Positions 9,913 to 31,094 of a stretch of DNA of 32,000 nucleotides are shown in pieces. The position numbers were made by a program, and so were the translations under genes. Under the pieces are notes generated by a model, which had not been told where the DNA came from, made no database searches, and worked only from the letters and a program-made list of their open reading frames with translations. The DNA is taken from contig NZ_CP147990.1 in the NCBI RefSeq assembly GCF_037902255.1, forward strand, positions 240,001-272,000, in the 5' to 3' direction. Numbering within the stretch: position 1 is the first letter of the stretch; every line of letters starts with the position of its first letter. The stretch comes from Candidatus Electrothrix sp. GW3-4 (GTDB lineage Bacteria > Desulfobacterota > Desulfobulbia > Desulfobulbales > Desulfobulbaceae).

Positions 9913-10263
9913 ATGCTGACAGGAAGTATCCCTAAATTACTCAAGGAAGCACGCCAGGTCAAAGAGGCCCTGGAAAAGATCGGACCGGGGCTGCCGGAAT
10001 CCATCACCGTGGCAGAGATAGAGAGACGGATTGCCGCGCTGGAGGCAAAGGTCAGTGCCATAGACGCCGTGAATGCCGACAAGACGCGCCTGGTCAATGA
10101 AAAGAACGCAGATGCCGGGTCGCTGAGCGATTTTATCGTCCGGGCACGATCCGGGGTCCTGAGCGTATTCGGAAAGGATTCCTCGGAATACGATATGGTC
10201 GGCTGTGTCCGGCTCAGTGAGCGGAAGAAGGGGAAGCGGCGTAATGGGGAAGGGAGTGAGTGA
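9913..10263 (+). CDS. hypothetical protein (116 aa, coiled-coil, basic C-terminus)
   Basis: ATG at 9913 preceded by a GAGGAGG RBS (9901-9907). The ORF track starts earlier at 9838, but that stretch has no RBS. Sequence MLTGSIPKLLKEARQVKEALEKIG... No recognisable domain. Confidence 0.55.
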   Translation: MLTGSIPKLLKEARQVKEALEKIGPGLPESITVAEIERRIAALEAKVSAIDAVNADKTRLVNEKNADAGSLSDFIVRARSGVLSVFGKDSSEYDMVGCVRLSERKKGKRRNGEGSE

Positions 10264-10511
10264 GCCTGCTCTGGGTGGAGTAGGTTTTGTTGTTTCGCCG
10301 GGTACGTGTAAAGTGCGTATCCGGTGGCTTAATGTTTTGCTATTGGGCCTCAAATCTCCAGAACCGACCTTGAAATCCATTTCACTGCATGGCCTGAAAA
10401 CGGCCTGTTATTGCTTGTGGTATTTTTCTCGTGGCATGTAACTAGATTTCTGTTTATTATTTATTTTTTCAGGTGATAATGCGATTTTTTTGAAACATAG
10501 GAGGTTATAGT

Positions 10512-11909
10512 ATGAGGGGGGTGGTTACTAGATTTAACGAATTTAGAGGGTATGGCTTTATAAAGTCAGACAGTGATGATGATAATGAATATTTTGTCCA
10601 CTGGTCCTTTATTGATAGTGCTGGATATAAAAATTTATGCAAAGGGGATCTCGTTGAGTTTACACCTGCGTATGAGCCTAAAGGGTTGCAGGCTCAACAT
10701 GTAAAGATTGTTGAGCAAAAGAACGATGAACCTTTAATGCTTAAACCAAACCCTTTTACTCCTCAGCAACCTATTACTAATCCTGATAGATTTGCAGGAA
10801 GAGAGGTTCCAATTATTAATGCTGTTGATTGTATATTTAATCATAAAAATATATTAATAACAGGTGAAAGGGGCATAGGGAAGAGTTCACTAGCTTTTCA
10901 GTTATCCTATTTGGCTGGAGGAGAAGACACTTTACTAAAAAGATTAAATATTAATACAGGTAATTATCAATTTCAATATCTGTGCCCGGATCATCGCTGT
11001 ATCCCAGGGCATAATTTATTCAATATAATTGAGTCATTAATCCTGTCGGCAGTTAGGGCATTAGGAATCGAACTTAGCTATGAAAAAATAACAACAGAAC
11101 TCGGGATTGATGTCAAGTTTGTAAAAGCAATCCAAAAAAGCGAGGTAGAAAATAGACCTTCAAACGAACTCATTACTTTTTTTGTTGATGCAATTGAAAG
11201 AATTTATTCCAGATCTGAAGGAAAATTTAATGGGATATTATTCTTAATAGATGAAATTGATTGCCTTGAGGATGGAGATAATTTAGCAGCTTTTTTAAAA
11301 GCATCAATTGAATCGTTAAATTTTAAGAATTATGGAAATATTTCTTTTATATTGGCTGGGGTAACAGGAACATTAACAGAACTTTTATTACAACACCAAT
11401 CATTTTCCAGACTGTTTGAGAATATTGAACTGAAGAGAATGACCGAGTCAGAACTTTCCGAAATAATAACAAAATCTCTAGCAGGAACTCAAGTTGTTAT
11501 GGATTCCGATGTGAAAACACAGGTTATCAATCTTTCGGATAGATTTCCAGAGCCAATACACCTCCTTGGATATCATTGTTTCAGATTCGATCAGGATATG
11601 AATATAGATCATATAGATTTTGAAAGAGCTCTAAATTTCATAATTAGAGAACTGAAAAAACAGGAGTTTGACAATCTATATGCAATTGCCAAAAATAGTT
11701 TTGGCTATCCCATCTTGAAAAAGATCGCATATATGAAAAAAAGTTATTTTACGGTGTCAGATTTGTCTAACGAACTTGATGTGAAAGAGAGTAAAGTCGC
11801 CGGATTTATTGGGGACATGGTTGGAAAATCAATAATCATAAAAGCAAAAGGAAGATTGTTCCGGCTTAAAGAGCCTCTTTTTCGAATATATTTAAAGTGG
11901 GTATTGTAG
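10512..11909 (+). CDS. cold-shock domain / AAA+ (Orc-Cdc6 or archaeal-ATPase-like) P-loop NTPase / C-terminal winged-helix fusion protein
   Basis: RBS AGGAGG at 10499-10504.
- aa 1-67: CSD with RNP1-like RGYGFI and RNP2-like YFVHWS.
- aa 93-97: FAGRE preface.
- Walker A: GERGIGKSS (10863-10889).
- Walker B: LFLIDEID (11238-11261).
- A FILAG strand follows.
- aa about 395-460: wHTH-like (FTVSDLSNELDVKESKVAGFIGDMVGKSIIIKAKGRLFRL).
The DNA is very AT-rich. Confidence 0.85.
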   Translation: MRGVVTRFNEFRGYGFIKSDSDDDNEYFVHWSFIDSAGYKNLCKGDLVEFTPAYEPKGLQAQHVKIVEQKNDEPLMLKPNPFTPQQPITNPDRFAGREVPIINAVDCIFNHKNILITGERGIGKSSLAFQLSYLAGGEDTLLKRLNINTGNYQFQYLCPDHRCIPGHNLFNIIESLILSAVRALGIELSYEKITTELGIDVKFVKAIQKSEVENRPSNELITFFVDAIERIYSRSEGKFNGILFLIDEIDCLEDGDNLAAFLKASIESLNFKNYGNISFILAGVTGTLTELLLQHQSFSRLFENIELKRMTESELSEIITKSLAGTQVVMDSDVKTQVINLSDRFPEPIHLLGYHCFRFDQDMNIDHIDFERALNFIIRELKKQEFDNLYAIAKNSFGYPILKKIAYMKKSYFTVSDLSNELDVKESKVAGFIGDMVGKSIIIKAKGRLFRLKEPLFRIYLKWVL

Positions 11910-11952
11910 AAATTGTCACTCTGGCAGCTACCGGCTTTCTGTGGGAGGTAAA

Positions 11953-12144
11953 ATGAAGTGCCAGCAAGTCATTACTCTTTTATCTTCCTGTAAAAAAGAA
12001 CTGAAGATTCGTTTCGGCGTGACCAAGCTGTTGCTGTTCGGCTCAACTGTACGCGATACAGCAAACGATGAGAGCGATGTAGACACCTTGGTCGCCTTTG
12101 ACGGCTCTGCAACCTCTAAGCGATATTTCGGACTCCTGTTTTGA
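11953..12144 (+). pseudogene. MNT-type nucleotidyltransferase (type VII TA antitoxin-like), 3'-truncated
   Basis: MKCQQVITLLSSCKKELKIRFGVTKLLLFGSTVRDTANDESDVDTLVAFDGSATSKRYFGLLF* carries the GS...D.D catalytic motif (LFGSTVRD..SDVDTLV). It stops where the conserved LEDLLG-KVDLV C-terminal part normally follows. No HepT partner is present. RBS GGGAGG at 11943-11948. Confidence 0.7.
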
Positions 12145-14887: not shown

Positions 14888-16042
14888 TCAGGGCATGAAG
14901 GCGCTCACATCCGTGAGTTCCTTGACCACCCGCACCTTCTGGCCATCTTCCACCGTCCGGTGGCCCTGGATGATGACCTTCTCCCCGAGCTGGAGTCCCT
15001 TGCGGATCAGGATTTGCCAACCCTCGGTAAAACCGGTTTCCACTGCTCGCTTATGGGCTACCCCTTCCTCCACCACATAGACAAATTGCTCGTCATTGCG
15101 GGAGATAACCGTGTACAGAGGTACCGCGACAACCTGTTCTTTGGTCTGTTTGATAATATTGGCCTGGAGGAACATGCCCGGCAGGATCTGTCCGTCCGGG
15201 TTATCCAGGGCTAGTTCCAGCCGGTAGGCATGAGCCAGGGTCTCCGGTGCCGGGGCCAGGAAATGGACCTGGGCCTGGAGCTGGGCATTGTGCAGGGAAC
15301 GAATATCTACCCCGACCTCTTTGAGTTGTCTGACCGCGTTGACATCGGCCTCGGGTACGGCAACCACCGCCTTGACCCGGTCGATCTGGAGGATCTCTGC
15401 AATGGGGGCAGGCATCATCTGGTTGACCACCATCCCAACCTCCGCGTCAAGCCGGTTGATCACCCCGGAGATGGGGGCGGTAATCCGACAACGGGAGAGG
15501 GCGAGCTCGGCGTTTTCCAGGGCGGACTTGCTCTGGCGCAGGGTTGATCGCTGTTCATCCAGATTGGCCTGGGTGGAGATCCCCTTGCTGCGCAGGGTCT
15601 TGTTCCGCGTATAATCGGCCTGGGCCAAGGCATAGGCGGCCTTGGCCGAGTCCAGGGCAATGCGGTAATCCTTATCCTCTATCCGGGCAATAAGCTGGCC
15701 CTGTTTAACATGATCGCCTTCCCGGACCACAATCTCTTCAATGCTGCCACCTATCTTGGCCATCAATGCCAGTTTTGTCCAAGGCTCTATGAGGCCAGGC
15801 AAGGTGATTTTATCTCGTAGCACAGTCGGCCTGAGTTCCAGAACAACCACGTTGGTTGGTGGCGCTTCCACTGCTGTGGCGTTTTTCAGTTCTTCTTCAC
15901 GGGCGCTCTTTTGTTCGCTGACCCGTTGGCCGATCAAGAGGGCTGCCGCAAGCAGGAGAAGAATAAAGAACAGGCCGGGCAGGTTCTTCAGGATAAACCA
16001 GATACTCTTTCCGCGCAGGGTCTTTGGGGTGGGTGATGTCAT
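14888..16042 (-). CDS. efflux RND transporter periplasmic adaptor (membrane fusion protein, HlyD_D23 type)
   Basis: 384 aa. N-terminal TM anchor (WFILKNLPGLFFILLLLAAALLIG), a lipoyl-like motif (GGSIEEIVVREGDHVKQGQLIARIE), a coiled-coil hairpin, and RITAPISGVINRLDAEVG. Its start codon overlaps the tetR stop (ATGA at 16039-16042). Confidence 0.9.
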   Translation of the reverse strand: MTSPTPKTLRGKSIWFILKNLPGLFFILLLLAAALLIGQRVSEQKSAREEELKNATAVEAPPTNVVVLELRPTVLRDKITLPGLIEPWTKLALMAKIGGSIEEIVVREGDHVKQGQLIARIEDKDYRIALDSAKAAYALAQADYTRNKTLRSKGISTQANLDEQRSTLRQSKSALENAELALSRCRITAPISGVINRLDAEVGMVVNQMMPAPIAEILQIDRVKAVVAVPEADVNAVRQLKEVGVDIRSLHNAQLQAQVHFLAPAPETLAHAYRLELALDNPDGQILPGMFLQANIIKQTKEQVVAVPLYTVISRNDEQFVYVVEEGVAHKRAVETGFTEGWQILIRKGLQLGEKVIIQGHRTVEDGQKVRVVKELTDVSAFMP

Positions 16043-16683
16043 GATTCGTTGTTCTGGTTTGCGCCCTTTGCAGGCGTTTCTTGCGGAAGAAGCCCGGTTA
16101 GGGCCTGATCAATCATCAGCTCCAGGGACTCGCGGACATCGTCTTCACTGTGCAGGCGTTCAGAGTACCAGGCCGAAAGGGCCATCAGGTACAGGCCGTA
16201 AAAATGCCCGCTCGTGATAATCAGCTCAATATCCCACCGCAGCTGCCCTTTTTCCTGGGCTTCTTTGAAGATGCTGACAAAGAGCTCAAGGAACTGTTCT
16301 TCAATCATCCGTGATTTCTCGATGGTGATCTCTTTGGGAAAGGTCAGTTCCCGGACTAAGGTTCGACCAAATTCTTTGTTCTTGGTCACAAAACGGAACT
16401 CGCTCATAAGGACCAGCAGCATCCTTTCCGCCAGCGGTGCCTTGGGATCGAGTTTTTCCCGGATCTCATCATGGATAAAGGCGAGTTCTTCTTCACAGAA
16501 GGCCAAGAGGATCTCATTCTTTGAGGAGAAATAAGAGTAGATGGTTCCTTTTCCTATGCCTGCGGCCTTGGCCAGGGCCGACACGCTGGTGCTTTCATAG
16601 CCCCGTTCTCCGAACAGGTTGATTGCCGCTTCCATGATAGCGGCCTTGGTGGCCCTTTTTTTTTGTTCCCGTAATCCTGCCAT
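16039..16683 (-). CDS. TetR/AcrR family transcriptional regulator
   Basis: The start is taken at ATG 16683 (MAGLREQKKRATKAAIMEAAINLFGERGYESTSVSALAKAAGIGKGTIYSYFSSKNEIL, a canonical TetR HTH). The ORF track start at 16785 adds 34 non-homologous residues. Translationally coupled to the adaptor gene. Confidence 0.85.
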   Translation of the reverse strand: MAGLREQKKRATKAAIMEAAINLFGERGYESTSVSALAKAAGIGKGTIYSYFSSKNEILLAFCEEELAFIHDEIREKLDPKAPLAERMLLVLMSEFRFVTKNKEFGRTLVRELTFPKEITIEKSRMIEEQFLELFVSIFKEAQEKGQLRWDIELIITSGHFYGLYLMALSAWYSERLHSEDDVRESLELMIDQALTGLLPQETPAKGANQNNES

Positions 16684-16726
16684 TATTCCGTTTTGAAAAA
16701 ATACGTTAAGTTTTTTTGTAACACCC

Positions 16727-16747
16727 ATCCCTCCCCAGGGGAGGGAT
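16727..16747. promoter_or_regulatory. perfect palindrome upstream of tetR (candidate operator)
   Basis: ATCCCTCCCC-A-GGGGAGGGAT: 10-bp arms around a single central base, 44 bp upstream of the tetR ATG. There is no U-tract, so it does not look like a terminator. Confidence 0.25.
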
Positions 16748-17105
16748 AACAAGACATAAAAGGTGGGAGGCCTAGTTGGCTTCACCGACCACGTGCATAT
16801 AAAAGGTGGCCTGCGGTTTATCTGCCACCTTTATTGTGTGTTGTCCCGGTTCGCCGGGGTGAAGGTTCGTGGTAAGGGGAGCTGCTGAAGTTTTATTTTT
16901 GACTTTGGTTGAAATGTTAAGCGTGGTCGGGAAAAAGGTCAAGGAAGAAATGACTGCGGTCAAGTTTTGAAGGGGGAAATGAGAGCCCAGGGTATTGCTT
17001 GCTGTTCTTGCGTTGTTAGCGCAGTCTGTGTTTTTCCAGCAGCAGCGTCCTGGTTGAGAGAGGAAATCCATCTGTAAAGAATTCAGTTTGACGTGATAAC
17101 AGCCT

Positions 17106-17133
17106 TTGGATTTTTTTAAGAAAGATGTATAAT
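17106..17133 (+). promoter_or_regulatory. candidate sigma70-type promoter of the redox cluster
   Basis: TTGGAT (17106-17111), 16-nt spacer, TATAAT (17128-17133), about 70 nt upstream of the ATG at 17206. Pattern match only. Confidence 0.35.
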
Positions 17134-17205
17134 TAAATCCATAGGATTTTGCTTGATGCTGAATTTTTTCTTAAAGAACAGAAAGTACCTAACGGAGGCA
17201 ACCTG

Positions 17206-19170
17206 ATGGGAGAGCGGCAAGTGTATACGGTCACCTTTCTTCCGGCGGGGAGGACCTGTAGGGTTCAGGCAGGGACAGAGCTGCTCAAGGCGGCGAGAAA
17301 GGCTGGCTTGCATGTGAATGCCTCCTGCGGTGGCGCCGGGGTCTGCGGCAAATGCCAGGTCATTATTGAGAAGGGATCGGTTCGCGGCGGTAAAAGCGAA
17401 AAAATACCAGCCGCCTTCTCTGCCCAGGGATACCGGCAGGCCTGTCGTGCGCAGGTCTGTGAAGATGTCGTTGTCCGTATTCCAGAGGCAAGCGGTCAAC
17501 GCCAAGGAGGGCTGGGCACGGCCCTTCCGCAGCGGAATCATGCTCGTCAGCATGTCTTTGATATGGACGAACTCAAACAGGAAGGCGGTTGGTCGCCCTC
17601 TGTTGAGAAGGTCTGTATTGAATTGGCTCCTCCGGCTGGCCATGATAATCGGGCAGATGCCGGTCGCCTGTTGCAGGGTCTGGCTGCCCAGTATAACAGG
17701 AGATGTGAGCTCAAGAGTCTGGCCTTCCTCCAGAAGCTGGGTAAGGCCTTGCGACAGGAAGATTTTCAGGCCACGGCTACGCTGGAGGTCCCGGTGAATC
17801 TGGCCGCCCGCTATCGGCTGTTGGATATCCAGCCGGGCTATCAATGCCATCGGAATTTTGGGTTGGCCTTTGATATCGGGACGACAACCATCTACGGCGT
17901 GCTCATTGATCTTGAGACAGGGCGATTTCTTGCCGAGGCCTCCTGCTATAACCCGCAGATGAGTTATGGCGAGGATGTGATCTCCAGGATCATCTGTGCA
18001 GAAAAGCCGGACGGCCTGGATCTAATGCAGAGGCTGGTAAATGAGGCCATGAACCAACTTATCACCGAGATGCTGGACAAGGCCAGTCCCTCGGAGAGAA
18101 TTGGGCAGCAGCCTGTGACGCGGGATGAGATCAACTCTGTCTCCATTGCTGGCAATACCACCATGACCCACCTGCTCCTGCGTCTGGACCCGAGTAGTAT
18201 CCGCCGCTCCCCTTATGTGCCAACCACCACCTTTTTCCCCTCGTTTCGGGCCCGGGAGGTAGGGCTTAATCTCTCAGACACCTGTGCCTCCTTGGTCTAT
18301 CCAGCTATTTCCAGTTATGTGGGGGGAGATATCGTGGCCGGGGTCATGGCCTCAGGGATGTATAGCTCAGAACAACTGACCCTGTTCATTGATGTGGGGA
18401 CCAATGCGGAAATTGTTATCGGCAACCGGGATTGGTTAGCCTGTGCAGCCTGCTCTGCTGGCCCGGCCTTTGAGGGGGGCGGTATTACCCACGGAATTCG
18501 GGCCGTGGAAGGGGCGATCAGCGATTTCAGTCTGAATCCGGAAACCCTGGAGCCCATGAATGTCACTGAAGGGGACAAGGCCCCGATAGGTATATGCGGC
18601 TCTGGCCTGCTCATTATTGTGGCGACCCTGTTTGAACACGGCATCCTTAATCAGAGTGGCAAGTTCCATCCCCTGGGACATCCCCGTATCCGTGAGGGAA
18701 AAAGCGGGCATGAGTATGTTCTGGCCTGGAAAGACGAATGCGCCGCAGCCCATGACATCGTGATCAATGAAGTGGATATTGAGAATTTTATTCGGGCCAA
18801 GGGGGCAATTTTCGCCGGAATCACCACGGTGTTGCAGCAGGTTGGTTTGCAGGTGAGCGATCTGGAGCAGATCATTCTTGCTGGTGGGTTTGGCTCCTAT
18901 ATCGATCTGGACAGTGCAATGACTGTGGGCCTGCTGCCGGAAGTGGACCCGGAGATGATCCTGTACCTCGGGAATGGTTCCCTGACAGGAAGTTGGATGT
19001 GTGAACTCTCTAACCATATTCGTCGGGATGTGGTGGAGGTGGTTCGGAAGATGACCAGTTTTGAGCTCTCGGAAGTTCCGGGTTTCAAGGATCAGTATAT
19101 GGCCTCTATGTTTCTGCCCCATACGGACCTGAGCCTGTTTCCTGGCGCAGCCGTGCGTAACAACGTATAA
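17206..19170 (+). CDS. 2Fe-2S ferredoxin domain / ASKHA (DUF4445) protein, RACo-like (reductive activator of corrinoid proteins family)
   Basis: ATG at 17206 with a GGAGG RBS at 17194-17198. N-terminal plant-type ferredoxin (YTVTFLPAG...NASCGGAGVCGKCQV). ASKHA motifs FDIGTTTIYG, SIAGNTTMTHLLL, DVGTNAEIV, GICGSGL and LAGGFGSY. Confidence 0.85.
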   Translation: MGERQVYTVTFLPAGRTCRVQAGTELLKAARKAGLHVNASCGGAGVCGKCQVIIEKGSVRGGKSEKIPAAFSAQGYRQACRAQVCEDVVVRIPEASGQRQGGLGTALPQRNHARQHVFDMDELKQEGGWSPSVEKVCIELAPPAGHDNRADAGRLLQGLAAQYNRRCELKSLAFLQKLGKALRQEDFQATATLEVPVNLAARYRLLDIQPGYQCHRNFGLAFDIGTTTIYGVLIDLETGRFLAEASCYNPQMSYGEDVISRIICAEKPDGLDLMQRLVNEAMNQLITEMLDKASPSERIGQQPVTRDEINSVSIAGNTTMTHLLLRLDPSSIRRSPYVPTTTFFPSFRAREVGLNLSDTCASLVYPAISSYVGGDIVAGVMASGMYSSEQLTLFIDVGTNAEIVIGNRDWLACAACSAGPAFEGGGITHGIRAVEGAISDFSLNPETLEPMNVTEGDKAPIGICGSGLLIIVATLFEHGILNQSGKFHPLGHPRIREGKSGHEYVLAWKDECAAAHDIVINEVDIENFIRAKGAIFAGITTVLQQVGLQVSDLEQIILAGGFGSYIDLDSAMTVGLLPEVDPEMILYLGNGSLTGSWMCELSNHIRRDVVEVVRKMTSFELSEVPGFKDQYMASMFLPHTDLSLFPGAAVRNNV

Positions 19171-19242
19171 AGAGGGAGAAGACAATCTTATGATTTTGCC
19201 GTTGATATTTTTTGTCCTGCTCAATGCTGGAGGAAATGATTG

Positions 19243-20577
19243 ATGAAAACCTCTCGTTGTTCAGTCTGTGGTTATCTGCATTTCGGTGGTCTTGATTTCC
19301 ATTTTTGTCCGCTTTGTCATGCCACGGCTGATCTCTTTACGGACTGTACAGTAACTGACCGGGGTAAGCCGGGGACCGGGGATATCATGATGGTACGGAT
19401 GATTCAGGAAATGGCCGAGACAGGGGAACCGTTTCGCGAAGGCAAGGGGCCAACAAGGATGTTCCTGAATATGGATGACTTAATTTTTCGGCCTGCTGTG
19501 CTTGCTCGTTTACCGCTGGCAGAGACGGTTGAGGTCACGACCGAGGTTGTGCTCGGGAAAACAGCACAGCAGCCTATTGTCCTCAAGACGCCGATCCTTA
19601 ATGCCGCGATGTCATACGGTGCCTTAAGTAAGGAAGCCAAGATGGCCCTGGCCTTGGCCTCCTCCCGAGTTGGAACCATTGCCAATACCGGAGAAGGGGG
19701 CATGTTGGATGAAGAGCGGGAGCTTGCCGAATACCTTACCTTGCAGTATGCTCCTGGTCATTTTGGGGTGAAGCGGGAACGGTTGTTATTGGCTGATATG
19801 GTGGAGATAAAGCTTGCTCAGGGTGCTCATCCGGGAACAGGGGCGTGGTTGTCCGCTGCCAATGTTAGTGTTGATATTGCTGCTACCCGAAGAATACCTA
19901 TAGGAGAGGCGGCGAGTTCGCCCGTAGTCCACGCGGATATACAAGGTGGAGGTGAGCTGTCAGAAAAAATTTTAAAACTTCGTGAGCTCACCCTGGGAAA
20001 GCCCATTGCGGTAAAAATAGCTGGCGGACACCTGGAAGATGATCTGAAAGCGATTTTTCATCAGGAGTATATTCCCGATGTCTTGGTCATTGATGGTGGT
20101 GAAGGCGGAACCTGTGCCTCCTCTGTGATCATGAAGGATCATGTTGGGCTCCCCTTGGTCTATGCCTTGCCCAGGGTGGTTAGTTTTCTCCGAAAGGAGG
20201 AGTTGTTTCATCGCGTTACCCTGATTGCGGCAGGTGGTATCCGTCATGCCGGGGATGTTGCTAAGGCCCTTGCTCTTGGGGCAGAGGCTGTGTACATGGG
20301 CGGGGCACTTAAGATCGCCCTGGGCTGTACCTATCGCCGACAATGTCATCTCGGCAATTGTCCGCATGGCATTGCAACCCAGGATAAGAAACTGCGTAAG
20401 CGCCTTGATGTGGAACAGGGGGCAACCCGCATTGCCCGTTTTATCCAGGCTACGACTGAGGAGGTGAAATCCATTGCCCGCTGCTGTGGCAGGGGTTCCG
20501 TACATGACCTTGATCGAACGGATTTGGCGGCCCTGCAGCCTGAGTTGGCACGCATTACCGGGGTTGAACTGGCATAA
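19243..20577 (+). CDS. glutamate synthase-related FMN/Fe-S protein (GltB domain-2 like) with N-terminal rubredoxin-like zinc ribbon
   Basis: ATG at 19243, with a GGAGGA RBS 8 nt upstream. N-terminus CSVCGYLHFGGLDFHFCPLCH (CxxC-x13-CxxC). Core motifs PILNAAMSYGALS, NTGEGG, KLAQGAHPG, IDGGEGGT, IAAGGIR and CHLGNCPHGIATQD are typical of the Glu_synthase family. Confidence 0.85.
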   Translation: MKTSRCSVCGYLHFGGLDFHFCPLCHATADLFTDCTVTDRGKPGTGDIMMVRMIQEMAETGEPFREGKGPTRMFLNMDDLIFRPAVLARLPLAETVEVTTEVVLGKTAQQPIVLKTPILNAAMSYGALSKEAKMALALASSRVGTIANTGEGGMLDEERELAEYLTLQYAPGHFGVKRERLLLADMVEIKLAQGAHPGTGAWLSAANVSVDIAATRRIPIGEAASSPVVHADIQGGGELSEKILKLRELTLGKPIAVKIAGGHLEDDLKAIFHQEYIPDVLVIDGGEGGTCASSVIMKDHVGLPLVYALPRVVSFLRKEELFHRVTLIAAGGIRHAGDVAKALALGAEAVYMGGALKIALGCTYRRQCHLGNCPHGIATQDKKLRKRLDVEQGATRIARFIQATTEEVKSIARCCGRGSVHDLDRTDLAALQPELARITGVELA

Positions 20578-20652
20578 AAAGAAGGGGCAGGGAATTAAAA
20601 AATAAGCAGCAGGACGTTGTCTGGAGCTGCGTAACCTGATGGGCGTATATTC

Positions 20653-21144
20653 ATGCTTTCTCAATTTTCATCCATGCTCGTAGCGTTGCTCCTGGTTATT
20701 GCCGGTGCCACACTTCTTGTGATGATTGAAATGACGGGAAAAAATGGAAACTCTCAGCAGGAGAAGAAAAAAAAGATTCTTCGTGCCTTTGGCTATCTTC
20801 TTTTCTTTCTCTTTGCCTTGGTCGTGGCCCTTCTGCTGAACAATGCCGGGGGATTCAACTATCAGGGGATGATGTCTGTCTGGGAAGCAGTACATATTGT
20901 CCTGGCCTTACTCCTGCTGACGCTTATCCTTATTAAGCTCTTTCTCATCAAGCTGCACGTCCAAAGCAGTTTCCGATTGGTTTTCCTGGGAACGGGACTA
21001 TTTGGTTTTATTTTCGTCCTGATCGGCGTTACAATAGGATATTATATTTTTAATCCCTCAGGGCTTTACTCTGCGTCTGAGATGCCAATGGGTTGGGGCT
21101 CTCAGGGGGGGCTCAGCTCAGCGTCTTATGGGGGGAAAATGTAG
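20653..21144 (+). CDS. 4-TM membrane domain of TM/multi-CxxCH cytochrome paralog 1 (frame broken; N-terminal fragment)
   Basis: Collinear with aa 1-135 of the 22004 gene (FSSML..E-MTGK..HIVLALLL..GYY). It ends at TAG 21142, just after G-runs at 21105-21111 and 21130-21135. Confidence 0.7.
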   Translation: MLSQFSSMLVALLLVIAGATLLVMIEMTGKNGNSQQEKKKKILRAFGYLLFFLFALVVALLLNNAGGFNYQGMMSVWEAVHIVLALLLLTLILIKLFLIKLHVQSSFRLVFLGTGLFGFIFVLIGVTIGYYIFNPSGLYSASEMPMGWGSQGGLSSASYGGKM

Positions 21145-21895
21145 CAAATGCCACTCGCTTGAGCGGGTCTTTTTGGACTTTAAGGAGGCAAAGGATTGGC
21201 AGCAGACTGTGCAGAGGATGGCAGTGCTGGATTATCCCAACATCAGTCAGGCTGATGTCGAGCAGATTACGGCCTATTTGCTCGAACAGCAGCAGCGAAG
21301 AGAACAAAATACGGATCGTCAAAAAATCGGCAAAAATTTGGTGACCAGAAAATGTGGGATATGCCATGATCTGAGTAGGGTCTTCAGAGCGGATAAGACC
21401 GTCCTGGAGTGGGAAAAGACAGTCGATAACATGGTGGCATTTCTCGGCGTGTCAAATTTTCTTTCAACCCAGGAACGAAACGATATTATCACCTTTCTCA
21501 GTAGTCGGCAGAACAGAAAGAGGCAGGGTAAACCTCCCAGCGAGGAAAAAATGGCCGAAGCCCTTGTTGCCCGTAAGTGCAGTGCCGGATGTCATGCGTT
21601 GGATAGGGTGCTGCGCGTGGAGAAAAAACCGCAACAGTGGTTAGAAACTGTTGAAAGTATGGAGGCAATGACCGGTGATCCAACATTTCTTTCTGAGCAG
21701 GAAAAAGAGATTATAGTTGATTGGCTCCTGCATCGGAAGCGGCCTGTTACATCACAAGAAGAAGCAGTGCGTTCAGAGGGGACGGAAGATGTACATACGC
21801 TTATCTCCAGCAAATGCACAGCATGTCATGATTTGGAGAAGCTCTTTCAGGGCCGTATCAAGAAGGGAACTCCTTTCCCTGGAGAAACCCAGTAA
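21128..21895 (+). CDS. CxxCH-repeat (c-type cytochrome-like) domain of paralog 1 (C-terminal fragment; 4th repeat truncated)
   Basis: Carries KCSKCHSLERV, KCGICHDLSRV, KCSAGCHALDRV and KCTACHDLEKL, each followed by W..TV..M. The frame is open from 21038 and overlaps the TM fragment. Removing one G merges the two ORFs. The fourth module ends prematurely at TAA 21893. Confidence 0.75.
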   Translation: MGGKCSKCHSLERVFLDFKEAKDWQQTVQRMAVLDYPNISQADVEQITAYLLEQQQRREQNTDRQKIGKNLVTRKCGICHDLSRVFRADKTVLEWEKTVDNMVAFLGVSNFLSTQERNDIITFLSSRQNRKRQGKPPSEEKMAEALVARKCSAGCHALDRVLRVEKKPQQWLETVESMEAMTGDPTFLSEQEKEIIVDWLLHRKRPVTSQEEAVRSEGTEDVHTLISSKCTACHDLEKLFQGRIKKGTPFPGETQ

Positions 21896-22003
21896 GATCA
21901 ATCCTGCATCGGATCCCTGGAGGAGTCATTCCGCGTGGAAGATCCGATACCGTTCCGGCACATCGCCTGAACAGATTCAAAAGGAAAGAACAAGGTAGGT
22001 GTT

Positions 22004-23389
22004 ATGCATCCCCATTTTTCATCAATGTTAGCAACGTTGTTAGTTGTTATCGGCGGAGTAACCGTCCTTATCATGCTGGAGATGACCGGAAAGGTCCGGG
22101 ACAGCCCCAGAAGAAAAGGCTGGATACTTCTCCATCGCATCCTCGGCTACCTGTTTCTTGTTCTTTTTGCCGCAATGCTGGTCTTTATGGTGATCAAGGC
22201 GGGAGGCTTTCAGGAGGAACTCCCTGCCCGGGCAATGATCCATATTATCCTGGCCTTGCTCCTTGTTCCTCTGATCATGATCAAGGTGGTGATTGCTAGG
22301 CGACATGCCCAGCTCAGTACCAAACTGATTATGCTGGGACTGGCAATCTTTGGGCTCTCCTTTGGCCTGACCGGCATTACGGCAGGTTATTATGCCCTTC
22401 ATCGTTCTGATTATAAATATGCGGTCCTCTCTGATGTGGATGATGATATCCTGAATGTGGAAATAGGACAGAAAATCACCAATAGAAAATGCAGTAAATG
22501 CCATAGCCTTGAGCGGGTTTATCAGAGTTATAAATCTGATATAGCCTGGACACAGACCATTCATAAAATGGCAGAACTGGATTATCCGAATATCACCAAT
22601 TTTGACGTAAAGCAGATTGTTGGTTATTTGGTACAACAGCAGCAGAAAAGGCAGGGAGAAGAAAAGGATAAGCTCCGTATGGAGATTGGACGGAGTCTGG
22701 TGAGCCAGAAATGCAGTATTTGTCATAATCTGGACAGAATCTTTGGGGCGAAAAAAAGTCGACAGGAATGGACAGAGACCGTGAACAGGATGACCAAGAC
22801 CAATGGTGATGCTGATTATCTTTCTGATCAGGAAGCAGGCGATATTATTTATTTCTTAACGCGTATTCGGAAGGAAGAGTTGCAGGAAGAAACAACGGTT
22901 GTCCCTCCTCCTCAACCGAGCCCGTCAAAGGAGATTCAGAAACTTATTGCTCTCAAATGCAGTGCTGGTTGCCATGCCCTGGACAGGGTCCTGCGTGTCC
23001 ATAAGGACGAAAAGGCGTGGCTTGAAACGGTAAACAGTATGGTGGAGATAACAGGAGATCCGGATTTCCTCACTCCAGAACAGAAGAAGGATATTGTTCA
23101 ATTCCTCAGTACCCGCAAGCAGCCTAGCGGCAGCGAACTCGGAGGCCTTCATCCTGATCTGTCAGAGGGGGTTGATCCCTTGCTTGATAATAAGTGTAAT
23201 GTCTGTCATGATCTGGAGCGAATCCAGCGGGTAGAGAGGAATGAAAAGGAATGGACAGATATCGTCAATAGCATGGTGGAAAGTACCGGTGATCCAAATT
23301 ATCTCTCAACGCAAGAGAAAGAGAAGATCATTAATATCATCAGCGCCTGGGGCTCGAAAGAGCAAAAGGAAGAGGAAAAAGAAAAATGA
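22004..23389 (+). CDS. membrane-anchored (4 TM) protein with four tandem CxxCH haem-c-type modules (putative tetrahaem cytochrome c)
   Basis: 461 aa. TM helices at about aa 8-26, 41-64, 77-97 and 107-131. Motifs CSKCH (22490-22504), CSICH, CSAGCH and CNVCH occur at aa 163, 237, 319 and 398. Each sits in the pattern KCxxCHxL(D/E)R-x7-9-W-x2-(T/I)(V/I)-x2-M...(Y/F)L(S/T)xQE. Confidence 0.85.
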   Translation: MHPHFSSMLATLLVVIGGVTVLIMLEMTGKVRDSPRRKGWILLHRILGYLFLVLFAAMLVFMVIKAGGFQEELPARAMIHIILALLLVPLIMIKVVIARRHAQLSTKLIMLGLAIFGLSFGLTGITAGYYALHRSDYKYAVLSDVDDDILNVEIGQKITNRKCSKCHSLERVYQSYKSDIAWTQTIHKMAELDYPNITNFDVKQIVGYLVQQQQKRQGEEKDKLRMEIGRSLVSQKCSICHNLDRIFGAKKSRQEWTETVNRMTKTNGDADYLSDQEAGDIIYFLTRIRKEELQEETTVVPPPQPSPSKEIQKLIALKCSAGCHALDRVLRVHKDEKAWLETVNSMVEITGDPDFLTPEQKKDIVQFLSTRKQPSGSELGGLHPDLSEGVDPLLDNKCNVCHDLERIQRVERNEKEWTDIVNSMVESTGDPNYLSTQEKEKIINIISAWGSKEQKEEEKEK

Positions 23390-23406
23390 GCCGAGAAGCC
23401 CGGCTC
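23388..23406 (+). terminator. candidate terminator after the cytochrome cluster
   Basis: GAGCCG (23388-23393) / CGGCTC (23401-23406) with a 7-nt loop, followed by GTTTCG. It overlaps the stop codon and sits between convergent genes. Confidence 0.35.
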
Positions 23407-23442
23407 GTTTCGCTGATGTGGTGAATCCCTGGCAGGAGAAGG

Positions 23443-24639
23443 TTAGGCAAACAGATTGGAGAAGATCCGGTATCCTCCGACCCAGGTGCCGATGGAAGAG
23501 CCGAAGCCGGTCATAATGAAGACGAGAAAAATCCGGAGCAGTTTATTGCGCCACCAGCCGCGCAGCGTAACCATGTCATTGGACACCCCTTCAAATTCCT
23601 TGACCACAGGGGGGCAGGCCATCACCTGGACAAAGGCACAGACATAACCGGCCCCGATGACCGGTGTCAGGCTGGTAATGGGCGCCGCTGCAAAGGCGGA
23701 AACAATGGTGGCAGGATGGGCAAAGGCGAGCACGGCCCCGATGGCTGAAGGTATGCCGTTGGCCAGAATCCAGTACAGGGCATTGGCCCCGGCCTCACCT
23801 GCTCCCTGCCGGAAGCCGATAATCGCCAGGGAGAGGAGGATCGCCACAGGGATGGACCAACCGAAAAACTTCCAGCCCTTGGATACCGGGGGAATGGTAT
23901 TAATCTCCTCCATCCTGCCGCTATTCTCTTCCGGGAAGATCCGTTTAATTCCCTCCATATGACCGGCCCCAACGACAGCAACGATGCGGTTCCCTGGGGC
24001 CTGTTTGATCTTTTCCGCCATAAAGACATCCCGCTCATCAATCAGAGCTGCTTTGGCCGCAGGCAGGGCTGTTCCGATTTCGTTCATCAGCTCGGAAAGC
24101 ACATCGTTGCGCCGTAACTCTGCCAGCTTTTCCTCATCCAATTCTGTGTCATCAAAGAGAGAGGTCAGCAGGCTTGCCATCATATAGAATTTCTTCCACA
24201 GCGAGGTCGCCTTCCAGGCTCGACGCAGGGTAATGCGCACATCTCGATCACAGAGTTCTACAGGGATGTGACGCTCCTTTGCCGCCTGAGCTGCGGTAAG
24301 CAGTTCTGTCCCTGGCTGGATGCCAATCTTGTTGCCCAGTTTTTTCTGGTACGAGGCCAGCACAAGATTAACCAGCAGGGTGGAGAGTTGTTTCTTGCGA
24401 ATGATCTGCTTCAGATCCAGGTTTTCCCATTGATGTGGGTTGGACAGGGCTGCATAGCGTTTTTCATCCAACTCTATGCAGACCGTATCTGGTTGTTCCT
24501 GTTCAATAACCTCCTGGACAAGATCAGCCGATTGTTGGGAGATATGGGCGGTTCCGACCAGAAGGATCGTCTTGTCATCATGCTGAATAACAGCAACATC
24601 ATCGGAATACTTCTTGCTCGGAAAAGGTGTGTTAGGCAT
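23443..24639 (-). CDS. TraB/GumN family protein with C-terminal TM region
   Basis: 398 aa. ILLVGTAHISQQSADLVQEVIEQEQPDTVCIELDEKRY and VVGAGHMEGI are family hallmarks. The C-terminal 130 aa is hydrophobic. Confidence 0.85.
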   Translation of the reverse strand: MPNTPFPSKKYSDDVAVIQHDDKTILLVGTAHISQQSADLVQEVIEQEQPDTVCIELDEKRYAALSNPHQWENLDLKQIIRKKQLSTLLVNLVLASYQKKLGNKIGIQPGTELLTAAQAAKERHIPVELCDRDVRITLRRAWKATSLWKKFYMMASLLTSLFDDTELDEEKLAELRRNDVLSELMNEIGTALPAAKAALIDERDVFMAEKIKQAPGNRIVAVVGAGHMEGIKRIFPEENSGRMEEINTIPPVSKGWKFFGWSIPVAILLSLAIIGFRQGAGEAGANALYWILANGIPSAIGAVLAFAHPATIVSAFAAAPITSLTPVIGAGYVCAFVQVMACPPVVKEFEGVSNDMVTLRGWWRNKLLRIFLVFIMTGFGSSIGTWVGGYRIFSNLFA

Positions 24640-29293: not shown

Positions 29294-29394
29294 GTCGTCA
29301 GGAGCGTTATGCTCAGGGTGTGCCTCTGGGCTTGTCCATACAGATCTGCAAGAGACTGCATTGACCCGTTCACCTATTGGTCATTCTAAAGAAA

Positions 29395-30033
29395 ATGGAT
29401 ATGAAAATACCTTACGGAATCAGTAACTTTAAGTCGCTTCTCGAAGAGGGGTATCTCTATATTGACAAGACCGCCTTTATAGAAACGCTCGAAGAATACG
29501 GTAAATACAATATCCTGCTCCGTCCTCGCCGCTTCGGCAAGAGTCTCTTTATCTCCAGTCTGTGGTATTATTATGATATCAGCTTCAAAGAAGAATTTGA
29601 TGCGCTTTTCGGCCACCTTGCCGTAGGGGAAAATCCCACCCTGCTCCACAACAGCTATCAGATCCTCGCCTTTGATTTCAGCGGGATAGCCACCGGCGAC
29701 GTTGCAACCGTTCTCCGCAATTTTACCGGCAGGGTCGAATCCTGTCTGCTTGATTTTTTGGAGCGGTATGATTACGGCCCTGAGGCCGCCGCTGAGATCA
29801 GGGCCAAAGAAAGTCCGCAGGAAAAAGTGGACTGCCTGTTTCGCCTTTGCCGGGGAAAAAAGTTTATCTGCTCATTGACGAGTATGACCATTTCGCCAAT
29901 GCGGTTCTCGGTGAGAGCCTGGAAATGTTCACGGAAATTATCGGCAAGGGAGGCGTTGTCCGGGCCTTTTATGAAACGATCAAAATTGCGGCAGGCCGGG
30001 GAACAGTGGATCGCCTCTTTGTTACCGGTGTGA
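29395..30033 (+). CDS. AAA-ATPase_like domain protein, N-terminal fragment (frame broken near 29852-29861)
   Basis: MDMKIPYGISNFKSLLEEGYLYIDKTAFIETLEEYGKYNILLRPRRFGKSLFISSL is the signature N-terminus of the predicted AAA-ATPase (DUF1703-associated) family. After CRGKK the frame loses homology. Confidence 0.8.
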   Translation: MDMKIPYGISNFKSLLEEGYLYIDKTAFIETLEEYGKYNILLRPRRFGKSLFISSLWYYYDISFKEEFDALFGHLAVGENPTLLHNSYQILAFDFSGIATGDVATVLRNFTGRVESCLLDFLERYDYGPEAAAEIRAKESPQEKVDCLFRLCRGKKFICSLTSMTISPMRFSVRAWKCSRKLSAREALSGPFMKRSKLRQAGEQWIASLLPV

Positions 30034-31094
30034 CCTCCATTACCCTGGACAGCATGACCAGCGGCTTTAATATCGGCGACAACATCACCTATCATCGGGA
30101 TTTCAACCAGGCGATGGGCTTTACCGGCCATGAAGTGAAAGAGATGATTCGACCTTTTGTTGATGCCTGCGGGCTTGACAATCAGGAGATGATGGGCACA
30201 CTCGGCAGATGGTATAACGGCTACCGTTTCAGCAGTCGCGTCGATGAGAAGATTTTTAACCCGGACATGGTGCTGTATTTCCTCAGGCATTTTGACATGG
30301 GTGAGTGCTGTTTCCCGGAGCGAATGCTGGACGACAATATCGCCTCAGACTACGGAAAGATTATGCGGCTCTTCGGGATCGGCGACCGGGAGAGTAATTT
30401 TCAGACCCTTGAGGAGTTGATCGTCAACGGCGAAATCGTCGGACGGCATAAGGGGAAACTTGACCTGGACATGAACAAGCCCTTTGAGCGCAACGACTTT
30501 ATCAGTCTGCTCCTCTCTATGGGTTTTATTACCCTCAGCGGCACTGTGCTCAGTCAGTACCGTTATAAGGTGCCCAATTATGTTATTCAGAAGCTGTATT
30601 ATGATTATTTCAGAGCGGAGATTGAGCGGCGTAGCCGGATTACGGTTTCAAGCCGTGCTGTTGAAAACGCTGTCGCCGAACTGGCCCTGCATAATAATAT
30701 CAAGCCGCTGATTGAGGAAATCGGCAGGGTGCTGGCCTTATTTTCCAATCGTGATTTCATGCGCATGGATGAAAAACACATCAAGGCTGTGATCCTGACT
30801 CTGCTGTACCAGTCTGAGGTCTATTTTATTCAGAGCGAGGCTGAGGTAAATAACCGCTACCCAGATATTCTCCTGCTAGAGCGCAACCCCATTGAGGTGC
30901 GCTATCAGTTTCTCTTTGAGCTGAAATACAGTAAGAAAAAGGAGGGTCAGCGTGGCCTGGAGGAAAAACGAGCTGAAGGAATTACGCAGGTCAGGGCATA
31001 TCAGGAGCTTGCGGAGATCAGGAAGCTGCCTAAGCTGAAGTCCTACCTCCTGCTCACTGATGGCAGTGCGATTGAGGCGGTGGAGGTTGGGTGA
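29847..31094 (+). CDS. AAA-ATPase_like / PD-(D/E)XK (PDDEXK_9, DUF1703) protein, C-terminal part
   Basis: GKKVYLLIDEYDHFAN (Walker B-like), VTGVTSITLDSMTSGFN, then a C-terminal nuclease-like core (HIKAVILTLLYQ...YFIQSEAEVNNRYPDILLLE...FELKYSK). One extra base in GGGGAAAAAA (29852-29861) joins it to the 29395 ORF (..LFRLCRGKKVYLLIDEYD..). Confidence 0.85.
   Translation: MPGKKVYLLIDEYDHFANAVLGESLEMFTEIIGKGGVVRAFYETIKIAAGRGTVDRLFVTGVTSITLDSMTSGFNIGDNITYHRDFNQAMGFTGHEVKEMIRPFVDACGLDNQEMMGTLGRWYNGYRFSSRVDEKIFNPDMVLYFLRHFDMGECCFPERMLDDNIASDYGKIMRLFGIGDRESNFQTLEELIVNGEIVGRHKGKLDLDMNKPFERNDFISLLLSMGFITLSGTVLSQYRYKVPNYVIQKLYYDYFRAEIERRSRITVSSRAVENAVAELALHNNIKPLIEEIGRVLALFSNRDFMRMDEKHIKAVILTLLYQSEVYFIQSEAEVNNRYPDILLLERNPIEVRYQFLFELKYSKKKEGQRGLEEKRAEGITQVRAYQELAEIRKLPKLKSYLLLTDGSAIEAVEVG

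Follow-up and report, generated by a model that had tools for sequence, protein, structure and literature searches.

The DNA analysed here, called the window throughout, is a stretch of 32,000 nucleotides (nt) from Candidatus Electrothrix sp. GW3-4, a cable bacterium that was named Ca. E. antwerpensis by the authors of its genome (PMC11247825). On its plus strand the window carries a cluster of genes for a RACo-like corrinoid activase, a flavoprotein resembling glutamate synthase (GltS) and two paralogous cytochromes c that are anchored by four transmembrane (TM) helices. We propose that this cluster is probably a composite, in which a RACo activase with distant clients and an ancient flavoprotein/cytochrome module stand behind one promoter in most Electrothrix species. 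Judging from gene order, only the two-gene unit of flavoprotein and cytochrome would be conserved widely enough to be one machine. A preliminary description of the same DNA had treated all of these genes as one module. For the flavoprotein and the cytochrome this was right, as their order is conserved in both scan directions and across phyla. RACo drops out of the module, since its position is not conserved and it was found at 0 of 47 non-Electrothrix loci that encode the pair.

Two scans in opposite directions bear on the pair. With the cytochrome alignment as query, one genome per species was searched, which yielded 79 loci that were then mapped by tblastn and by clustering of their open reading frames (ORFs). 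Reciprocally, metagenomes were searched with an alignment of the GltS-like protein, which yielded 80 loci. The Electrothrix loci of the cytochrome scan were syntenic with the window. At about 25 non-cable loci, the GltS-like gene lay directly upstream of a shorter cytochrome of about 290 amino acids (aa) with two haem modules. These loci came from non-cable Desulfobulbaceae, Desulfocapsaceae, Desulfobacterales, SEEP-SRB2, Desulfotignum, an Aminicenantes chromosome and several mislabelled metagenome-assembled genomes (MAGs). In the reciprocal scan, a cytochrome gene came next in 27 of 27 loci whose flavoprotein was at least 56% identical, carried a rubredoxin-like domain and was followed by available DNA, and in 0 of 50 loci with GltS-like relatives that lack this domain and are 43-48% identical. 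The rubredoxin-like domain is confined to the cytochrome-linked subfamily. All 46 non-Electrothrix loci with a flavoprotein and downstream sequence contained the cytochrome, and the median gap from stop to start codon was 11 nt. Judged by this genomic distribution, the coupling of the GltS-like flavoprotein to the 4-TM cytochrome c is tight and obligate. In the searchable literature nothing relevant was found on DP0508/DP0509, on fusions of rubredoxin with GltS, or on cable bacteria in connection with glutamate synthase or with quinohemoprotein-type cytochromes, and the pair is apparently an undescribed combination of known domains.

The flavoprotein matches PF01645 (Glu_synthase, 1e-102) and aligns with the flavin mononucleotide (FMN) domain of the ferredoxin (Fd)- and NADPH-dependent GltS (1LLW, 1EA0), keeping the TIM barrel and the three cluster cysteines; its earlier assignment as a GltB-domain-2-type FMN/Fe-S protein is borne out. 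The cluster cysteines form a [3Fe-4S]-type motif (C363-x5-C369-x4-C374-P) and are invariant in the family. At the N-terminus lies a rubrerythrin-type rubredoxin-like domain (PF21349, 27.9 bits against a cutoff of 26.5) whose four cysteines, C7, C10, C23 and C26, do not vary among 27 members of the family. They are spaced CxxC-x12-CxxC, with the same x12 as in PF21349 and not x13 as first described, and the metal of this Cys4 centre would be iron or, alternatively, zinc. Neither an amidotransferase nor a GXGXG domain was found in the protein or in the neighbourhoods of 47 loci. By its domain content the flavoprotein is GltS-like in fold and cofactors, yet not a glutamate synthase.

Members from non-cable bacteria retain the GltS motif EIKxSQGAKPGxGGKLPG, including the equivalent of Lys972 of Synechocystis Fd-GltS, which we take to be the active-site lysine. 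At that position the Electrothrix proteins read GAHPG, or GAAPG in strain YB6; the window has GAHPG. Over residues ~190-205 (window 19780-19830), GAKPGxGGKLPG has turned into GAHPGTGAxLxA, and this is specific to Electrothrix. The replacement suggests that the cable bacteria may have come to differ in substrate or chemistry from every other member of the pair. The idea that the Lys-to-His change tracks RACo was rejected, as the RACo-less Electrothrix-type loci L006 and L087 also have the histidine.

In the non-cable members the flavoenzyme would probably act on a 2-oxo- or amino-acid-like compound. One might go further and regard the non-cable pair as a reverse ammonia-dependent glutamate synthase, or as a glutamate-type amino-acid:cytochrome c oxidoreductase, which would supply periplasmic acceptors with electrons from the oxidation of amino acids. 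The retained lysine motif speaks for this idea, as do the closest relatives without the rubredoxin-like domain, which include archaeal-type stand-alone GltS FMN subunits, and the gene content of the loci, where a class I/II aminotransferase adjoins the pair in 12 of 47 cases and a pyridoxal phosphate (PLP) decarboxylase is nearby in 10. We nevertheless think it unlikely. No amidotransferase or GXGXG domain partner is present at the loci, and the Electrothrix proteins, that of the window included, have lost the lysine, which makes the idea at best inapplicable to the locus studied here. The neighbourhoods of the 43-48% identical relatives were unrelated and mostly archaeal-looking and gave no functional lead for the pair.

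The cytochromes consist of Dehyd-heme_bind cytochrome c modules (Pfam) of the kind seen in SorB and PF09098. The second paralog (cyt2; NCBIfam SorB, 77 bits) carries the haem motifs CSKCH, CSICH, CSAGCH and CNVCH, each with a conserved W...M downstream. The preliminary description had spoken of CxxCH modules: the class-I c modules are there, four in number, but the third motif is CX3CH. AlphaFold2 (AF2) predicts TM helices at residues 3-28, 38-71, 75-100 and 107-132. Because there are four helices and the K/R-rich loops 1 and 3 should be cytoplasmic by the positive-inside rule, the haem modules are predicted to be periplasmic, in agreement with the first description, and haem attachment is likewise a prediction. 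The model has a mean pLDDT of 75, with 80-94 in the haem modules and 57-78 in the TM domain. When the whole model was submitted to Foldseek, the sole match was SorB (2BLF_B, probability 0.98), and it ran through one haem module.

With 53-62% identity, paralog 2 is orthologous to the short, GltS-linked cytochromes, to which it adds two modules. Paralog 1 (cyt1) is a divergent tandem duplicate (41-47% identity) whose fourth module is decaying: in its haem part, three class-I c modules are complete, and of the fourth there is only the CxxCH. Truncated or variable 3' ends of paralog 1 also occur in orthologs (P0099, P0105, L024, L087), and those of L084/L085 end before the fourth motif. In the membrane anchor, His44, His80 and Lys94 are conserved, and Lys94 and Arg99 are nearly invariant. 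His80 is retained in all GltS-linked (31/31) and anammox (8/8) members, in 24 of 25 other members and in none of nine of the Electronema type; His44 is absent from the paralog-1-type proteins and from most Electronema proteins. The notion that the TM histidines track the flavoprotein partner held in part, as both are lost in the partnerless Electronema-type proteins and kept in the partnerless L165 and in 'other' contexts.

Taken together, we envisage the pair as a membrane complex that would pass electrons between the substrate of a cytoplasmic flavoenzyme and the periplasmic cytochrome pool. The path would lead from FMN over the [3Fe-4S] cluster and the rubredoxin centre to one or more membrane haems held by the conserved histidines, and from there to the c-haems. 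In cable bacteria the module has been remodelled: the cytochrome grew from two to four haem modules and was duplicated, and the flavoenzyme exchanged the GltS-type active-site lysine for histidine.

A related arrangement exists in anammox Planctomycetota, where the gene before a homologous 4-TM cytochrome with two modules is often one for an NADH:rubredoxin-reductase-like flavoprotein (PF07992 and PF18267). By analogy, this pairing with a different cytoplasmic flavoprotein supports the logic of a flavoprotein plus anchor. The anammox cluster (L052-L070) comprises two Hsp20 genes, superoxide reductase, two small cytochromes c, phosphofructokinase, the flavoprotein, the 4-TM dihaem cytochrome and a short-chain dehydrogenase/reductase (SDR), and also cytochrome c peroxidase, a cysteine-dioxygenase-like cupin, glutamate dehydrogenase and a rubrerythrin-like protein. 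As a whole it resembles an oxidative-stress electron-supply unit built round the same membrane anchor.

The RACo-like protein has 654 aa when read from its ATG, which is preceded by a GGAGG Shine-Dalgarno site. It contains the Pfam domains Fer2, RACo_linker, Raco_middle and RACo_C_ter in full. The N-terminal plant-type [2Fe-2S] ferredoxin domain (PF00111, 2.3e-10) aligns its CGGAGVCGKC...C cysteines with those of the Carboxydothermus hydrogenoformans RACo structure 3ZYY, and it is followed by the linker, middle and ASKHA ATPase domains (PF17650, PF17651 and PF14574, E 4e-96). The alignment with 3ZYY is collinear over the full length (E 1.6e-144) and keeps DIGTTT and DVGTN. NCBIfam AcsV matches over the full length as well, with 606.7 bits, which is below the 800-bit cutoff of that model; NCBI names the identical GW3-4 protein 'ASKHA domain-containing protein'. 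These alignments place the protein securely in the family of corrinoid reductive activases, with the RACo/AcsV type, as the preliminary description had recognised from its 2Fe-2S and ASKHA domains.

The same description had called this RACo an orphan. The observation behind the term is correct, as the entire 32-kb window contains no gene for a corrinoid protein or a corrinoid methyltransferase. Orthologs of RACo with 60-75% identity are frequent among Desulfobulbales and other Thermodesulfobacteriota, and those of 61-71% identity in other Desulfobulbales sit in unrelated neighbourhoods. We examined seven ortholog neighbourhoods. In L080 and L166, RACo is preceded by a molybdopterin oxidoreductase, a Fer4_22 protein and an FAD/NAD protein; in L081 (Thiovibrio), L082 and L167 it stands alone amid unrelated genes; in L164 and L165, which are Electrothrix-like lineages, the cytochrome is directly downstream. 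Corrinoid or methyltransferase genes, which might have been expected just outside comparable loci, were present in none of the seven, so that this orthologous group appears to be generally unlinked to its client. One candidate, a uroporphyrinogen decarboxylase (URO-D) gene upstream of the RACo of L164, was rejected as a corrinoid methyltransferase, since it is HemE (TIGR01464 434 bits, against 86 bits for the MtaA type). It adjoins a gene for an AhbD-like radical SAM protein, which places it in haem biosynthesis and not in corrinoid methyl transfer. On this Electronema-like metagenome contig (L164, 3595-5855), RACo and a five-module cytochrome lie divergently beside hemE and the gene for the AhbD-like haem b synthase, which may connect them with the supply of haem.

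At the genome scale the orphan premise is weak. GW3-4 encodes the corrinoid iron-sulfur protein (CoFeSP) subunits acsC (WGN25_12490) and acsD (WGN25_12500) as well as acsE (WGN25_18540; Table S8, PMC11247825), all far from the cluster, in which the cyt2 gene is WGN25_01200. Because acsC, acsD and acsE are present at distant loci, the GW3-4 RACo is not a genomic orphan, and 'orphan' would here mean merely 'not adjacent'. All closed cable-bacteria genomes encode CODH/ACS (carbon monoxide dehydrogenase with acetyl-CoA synthase) and CoFeSP (PMC11247825). Moreover, fitness data have shown for Desulfovibrio and Phaeobacter that the B12 of MetH is reactivated by unlinked proteins of the DUF4445/RamA-like kind (PMC5764234). 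Judged from the gene content, the prime client of RACo is most likely the corrinoid iron-sulfur protein AcsC/AcsD of the Wood-Ljungdahl pathway, and by analogy a MetH without reactivation domain is a possible second one. RACo would spend ATP to reduce inactive Co(II) corrinoid proteins, whose genes lie elsewhere in the genome, with an electron taken from its [2Fe-2S] cluster. A caution follows for annotation: as the gene of a DUF4445 activase often lies apart from that of its corrinoid client, adjacency is an unreliable guide to its function.

The cluster occurs in three variants within Electrothrix. The order RACo-GltS-(cyt1)-cyt2 is found in the window and in at least ten other Electrothrix loci (variant A); GltS-(cyt1)-cyt2 without RACo is found in L006 and L087 (variant B); and RACo-cyt2 without the GltS-like gene is found in L010 and L165, and also in L164, where RACo stands before the five-module cytochrome in an Electronema-like context (variant C). 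Cyt2 is the sole gene constant in all Electrothrix locus variants, which argues against an obligatory three-component machine. The adjacency of RACo and cytochrome in variant C looks like the remainder expected from deletion of the middle gene. In Electronema, a four-module cytochrome has neither RACo nor the GltS-like gene as a neighbour. In these freshwater cable bacteria it comes after a periplasmic protein whose C-terminal part is a cytochrome c554-like multihaem domain, and before lgt and pyrF (L011-L019, L035 and L071), and its His80 and mostly also its His44 are gone. A second Electrothrix locus (L034, L040, L045, L046, L047 and L049, about 10 kb in) encodes one or two 4-TM cytochromes of about 300 aa, with both TM histidines conserved, and a fragment-like ORF of about 108 aa. 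It is flanked by genes for an Mrp/NBP35-like ATPase, a metallo-beta-lactamase (MBL)-fold hydrolase, SelB and a PAS-GGDEF-EAL protein.

The candidate promoter of the first description, TTGGAT-16-TATAAT at 17106-17133, is present exactly as given; for the looser pattern TTG-N19-TATAAT the window has a single occurrence, where 0.19 would be expected. It lies inside a block of about 40 nt that is nearly invariant in nine Electrothrix upstream regions, with diverging flanks. Because the block is so well kept across these nine loci, the promoter is a real conserved element and not a chance match. The block is nearly invariant in seven RACo-containing loci and also stands in the RACo-less L006 and L087, directly before the GltS-like gene. 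As it precedes RACo in variant A and the GltS-like gene in variant B, RACo was inserted or deleted between promoter and pair. The cluster genes of most Electrothrix species would share this one promoter. The hexamers are bracketed by an imperfect inverted repeat (CCTTTGGATTT ... AAATCCATAGG, window 17098-17150, 76% complementary), the right arm of which is without conservation in other Electrothrix species.

Within 16000-24000 of the window there was no Rfam match at E <= 1, such as a cobalamin riboswitch upstream of RACo, and a riboswitch or other RNA element at that place was therefore rejected. The terminator scan found no terminator-like site in the three internal intergenic regions (72 nt between RACo and the GltS-like gene, 75 nt between the latter and cyt1, and 108 nt between cyt1 and cyt2), and their folding was unremarkable (z = -0.27, 0.12 and -0.84). 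Downstream of the cluster, the hairpin noted earlier at 23388-23406 is real and stable, but its U-tail serves the minus-strand gene. In the terminator scan a U-rich tail was found on the minus strand only (ATTTTTCTTT), the plus-strand tail being GUUUCGCUG; for this reason the hairpin is, by sequence, primarily the terminator of the convergent TraB-family gene, and it may act bidirectionally.

Several observations weigh against the composite reading and against the pair as a membrane complex. RACo is co-oriented with the module, lies 72 nt upstream of it behind the same promoter and is separated from it by no terminator, and a functional tie between the two within Electrothrix is conceivable. 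Several cable-bacteria lineages (Electronema, L164 and L165) have the cytochrome without the flavoprotein, and L165 keeps both histidines; since these lineages retain it, the cytochrome can serve other partners. The TM domain has no Pfam match above cutoff, and when it was modelled alone (pLDDT 67.6), Foldseek returned only generic four-helix bundles at E > 0.1, among them b561 and HyaC. His44 and His80 lie on opposite membrane faces, and with one conserved histidine per face, bis-His ligation within a monomer would be impossible, so that a dimer or another ligand must be assumed. Haem binding in the membrane is a conjecture, given that the anchor has no significant Pfam or fold match and a low AF2 confidence.

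The position of RACo can be read as a sign that RACo, flavoprotein and cytochromes are one system, in which ATP would drive the injection of low-potential electrons into the flavoprotein/cytochrome chain or the reactivation of that chain, and RACo would have a non-corrinoid use. Besides the shared strand, the short gap, the conserved promoter block and the lack of a terminator-like structure in between, this reading can point to a RACo-first order that is kept in at least 11 Electrothrix loci, to RACo staying beside the cytochrome where the GltS-like gene is missing (L010, L164 and L165) and to a flavoprotein that in Electrothrix has its lineage-specific exchange of the active-site Lys for His. 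However, synteny among congeneric Electrothrix is explicable by descent alone, and the RACo-cytochrome adjacency of the GltS-less loci would be expected from a simple middle-gene deletion. RACo is absent from all 47 non-Electrothrix pair loci and from L006 and L087, which also carry the Lys-to-His change, and its orthologs of 61-71% identity are scattered in unrelated contexts. The protein is also a close full-length match to the activator of CoFeSP, and CoFeSP is encoded in the same genome. To our knowledge, all characterised members of the family of RACo, RamA and O-demethylase activating enzymes act on corrinoids. We regard one system of all three components as very improbable.

A different objection concerns the pair itself. 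The GltS-like enzyme and the cytochrome might be co-regulated only, as parts of a stress or redox-homeostasis regulon, forming no complex, exchanging no electrons and working with soluble substrate and carriers. The membrane domain indeed has no proven cofactor-binding motif and structural searches gave nothing significant, cable-bacteria lineages retain the cytochrome without the flavoprotein, and the recurrent neighbours of the pair suggest a stress-type regulon: among 47 loci, a cytochrome P460-like protein occurs in 15, an extracytoplasmic function (ECF) sigma factor in 12 and a zf-HC2 anti-sigma factor in seven. Further neighbours at these loci are the class I/II aminotransferase (12, often adjacent), the PLP decarboxylase (10), DUF4079 (five) and a DUF2231-cytochrome c fusion (five). 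Still, the cytochrome follows the flavoprotein subfamily in 100% of cases with the same median gap of 11 nt across phyla, which is the pattern of subunits. In addition, the rubredoxin-like domain, a one-electron relay, is restricted to the cytochrome-linked subfamily, and the anammox pair joins a different flavoprotein to the same anchor. Mere co-regulation thus seems to us an unlikely account.

Beyond the composite reading, we put forward a more specific proposal, which is tentative and, as a whole, doubtful. The rubredoxin-fused GltS-like flavoprotein and the 4-TM cytochrome would be an undescribed transmembrane electron-transfer complex that binds one or more haems between anchor subunits via the two conserved histidines and couples an amino- or 2-oxo-acid-type chemistry to the periplasmic cytochrome pool. 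In cable bacteria this complex, with four modules and in duplicate, would have come under one promoter with the ATP-driven low-potential donor RACo, and it may exchange electrons with the periplasmic conduction machinery.

Cable bacteria must shuttle electrons between the cytoplasm and the periplasmic network of conductive fibres, and the membrane links are largely unknown. A concrete candidate for a connection of this kind is the membrane cytochrome c whose elongation and duplication are specific to cable bacteria, all the more so as dozens of anaerobes have its ancestral form hard-wired to a flavoenzyme of the cytoplasm. The pair is a widespread two-gene unit of Desulfobacterota, Aminicenantes and related MAGs, and a culturable source exists in Desulfotalea psychrophila, which has the flavoprotein homolog DP0508 together with a cytochrome homolog.

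The coordinates of the locus are compiled in the table below. For each of the RACo-like, GltS-like and 461-aa cytochrome proteins, NCBI has a 100% identical protein from Candidatus Electrothrix sp. GW3-4.

Table. Features of the RACo/flavoprotein/cytochrome locus and its borders (window positions).
Feature	Position	Strand	Basis or remark
Intergenic block with two TGAC-N4-GTC(A/G) palindromes	16899-16965		conserved in 9 Electrothrix upstream regions
Conserved promoter block GATAACAGCCTTTGGATTTTTTTAAGAAAGATGTATAATTA	17096-17136	+	-35 TTGGAT 17106-17111, -10 TATAAT 17128-17133
RACo-like gene	17206-19170	+	ORF call, Pfam
GltS-like flavoprotein gene	19243-20577	+	ORF call, Pfam
Cytochrome paralog 1, whole	20653-21895	+	two ORFs in different frames
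Cytochrome paralog 1, 4-TM anchor part	20653-21144	+	ORF stops at frameshift; 45% identity to cyt2 TM domain
Frameshift zone	21100-21137	+	G7 run 21103-21109, G6 run 21131-21136
Cytochrome paralog 1, haem part	21128-21895	+	47% identity to cyt2 residues 156-407
Cytochrome paralog 2 (cyt2), 461 aa	22004-23389	+	Pfam, NCBIfam, AF2
Hairpin	23385-23409	-	overlaps cyt2 stop codon; stable on both strands, z = -3.5
TraB-family gene, convergent	23443-24639	-	downstream of cluster

The preliminary description had counted four consecutive plus-strand genes with gaps of 72-108 nt. Genes, coordinates and gaps were right, but paralog 1 is split by a frameshift, with its TM part and its haem part in different reading frames. 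Compared with six other Electrothrix genomes, in which paralog 1 is intact, the linker at the frameshift is 2 nt shorter in the window. The GW3-4 assembly was made from Nanopore R9.4.1 reads and polished with Illumina reads derived from multiple displacement amplification (MDA), and its authors admitted polishing problems and gene fragmentation (PMC11247825). Given a Nanopore assembly with such problems, a homopolymer error of the assembly is at least as likely as a true pseudogene. Further homopolymer frameshifts may exist in the GW3-4 genome for the same reason.

Upstream of the cluster, a TetR-HlyD-AcrB efflux unit lies on the opposite strand; downstream, a Sel1-repeat gene accompanies the convergent TraB-family gene. 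By its sequence the palindrome block of the upstream intergenic region is likely the operator of the divergent TetR regulator and would belong to the context, outside the module. If it is that operator, TetR might act on the divergent RACo/GltS/cytochrome promoter besides the efflux genes. Elsewhere in the window, low-GC islands occur at 1001-2000 (0.37) and 10001-12000 (0.33-0.43), with ~0.5-0.6 in the rest. The second island encodes a cold-shock-domain protein fused to a STAND/AAA NTPase (10512-11909) and may be a defence or mobile island. An ORF at 29847-31094 combines the C-terminal part of a 'predicted AAA-ATPase' (profile positions 139-201 only) with a PD-(D/E)XK_9 nuclease domain; it may lack its N-terminal end, or there may be a further frameshift, marked by the overlapping ORF 29377-30033.

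In comparison with known systems, the RACo of the window is a known kind of protein in a known type of placement. It has the same four domains, [2Fe-2S] cysteines and ASKHA phosphate-binding motifs as the CoFeSP activators RACo (3ZYY/4C1N) and AcsV (NF040756). Unlike these, its gene is not beside acs genes and shares a promoter with the flavoprotein/cytochrome module, and its AcsV score stays under the 800-bit cutoff. The RamA-like DUF4445 proteins of Desulfovibrio (Dde_2711, DvMF_1398) and Phaeobacter (PGA1_c15200) belong to the same family. They are encoded away from their client, a MetH lacking PF02965, so that unlinked placement is normal for the family (PMC5764234).

The flavoprotein shares with FMN domain 2 of the GltS alpha subunit (1LLW/1OFD, 1EA0, 7MFM) and with the archaeal stand-alone subunits the TIM barrel, the three [3Fe-4S] cysteines and most motifs of the FMN and substrate sites. 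It differs from GltS by the absence of the amidotransferase and GXGXG domains, by the added rubredoxin domain, by its obligate pairing with a membrane cytochrome c and, in Electrothrix, by a histidine in place of the Lys972 equivalent. Each cytochrome module of about 70 aa is of the same small class-I type as SorB of the Starkeya sulfite dehydrogenase (2BLF_B) and the haem domains of the quinohemoprotein amine dehydrogenase alpha subunit (PF09098). Here, in contrast, two to five such modules stand in tandem, one of them with CX3CH, and are fused to a 4-TM anchor of no described family. Qrc, Tmc/Hmc, DsrMKJOP and NapC/NrfH/CymA are work-alikes that link cytoplasmic or quinone-pool redox reactions to periplasmic c-type cytochromes. 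The pair is made of altogether different proteins: it lacks an NrfD/NarI-type subunit, a c3-type haem packing and an HdrD/CCG protein, and the cytoplasmic partner of its cytochrome is a GltS-type flavoprotein. Transmembrane di-haem b anchors of the b561, HyaC or SdhCD type carry paired histidine ligands in their membrane helices; in the anchor of the pair two histidines, 44 and 80, are conserved, and they lie on opposite faces.

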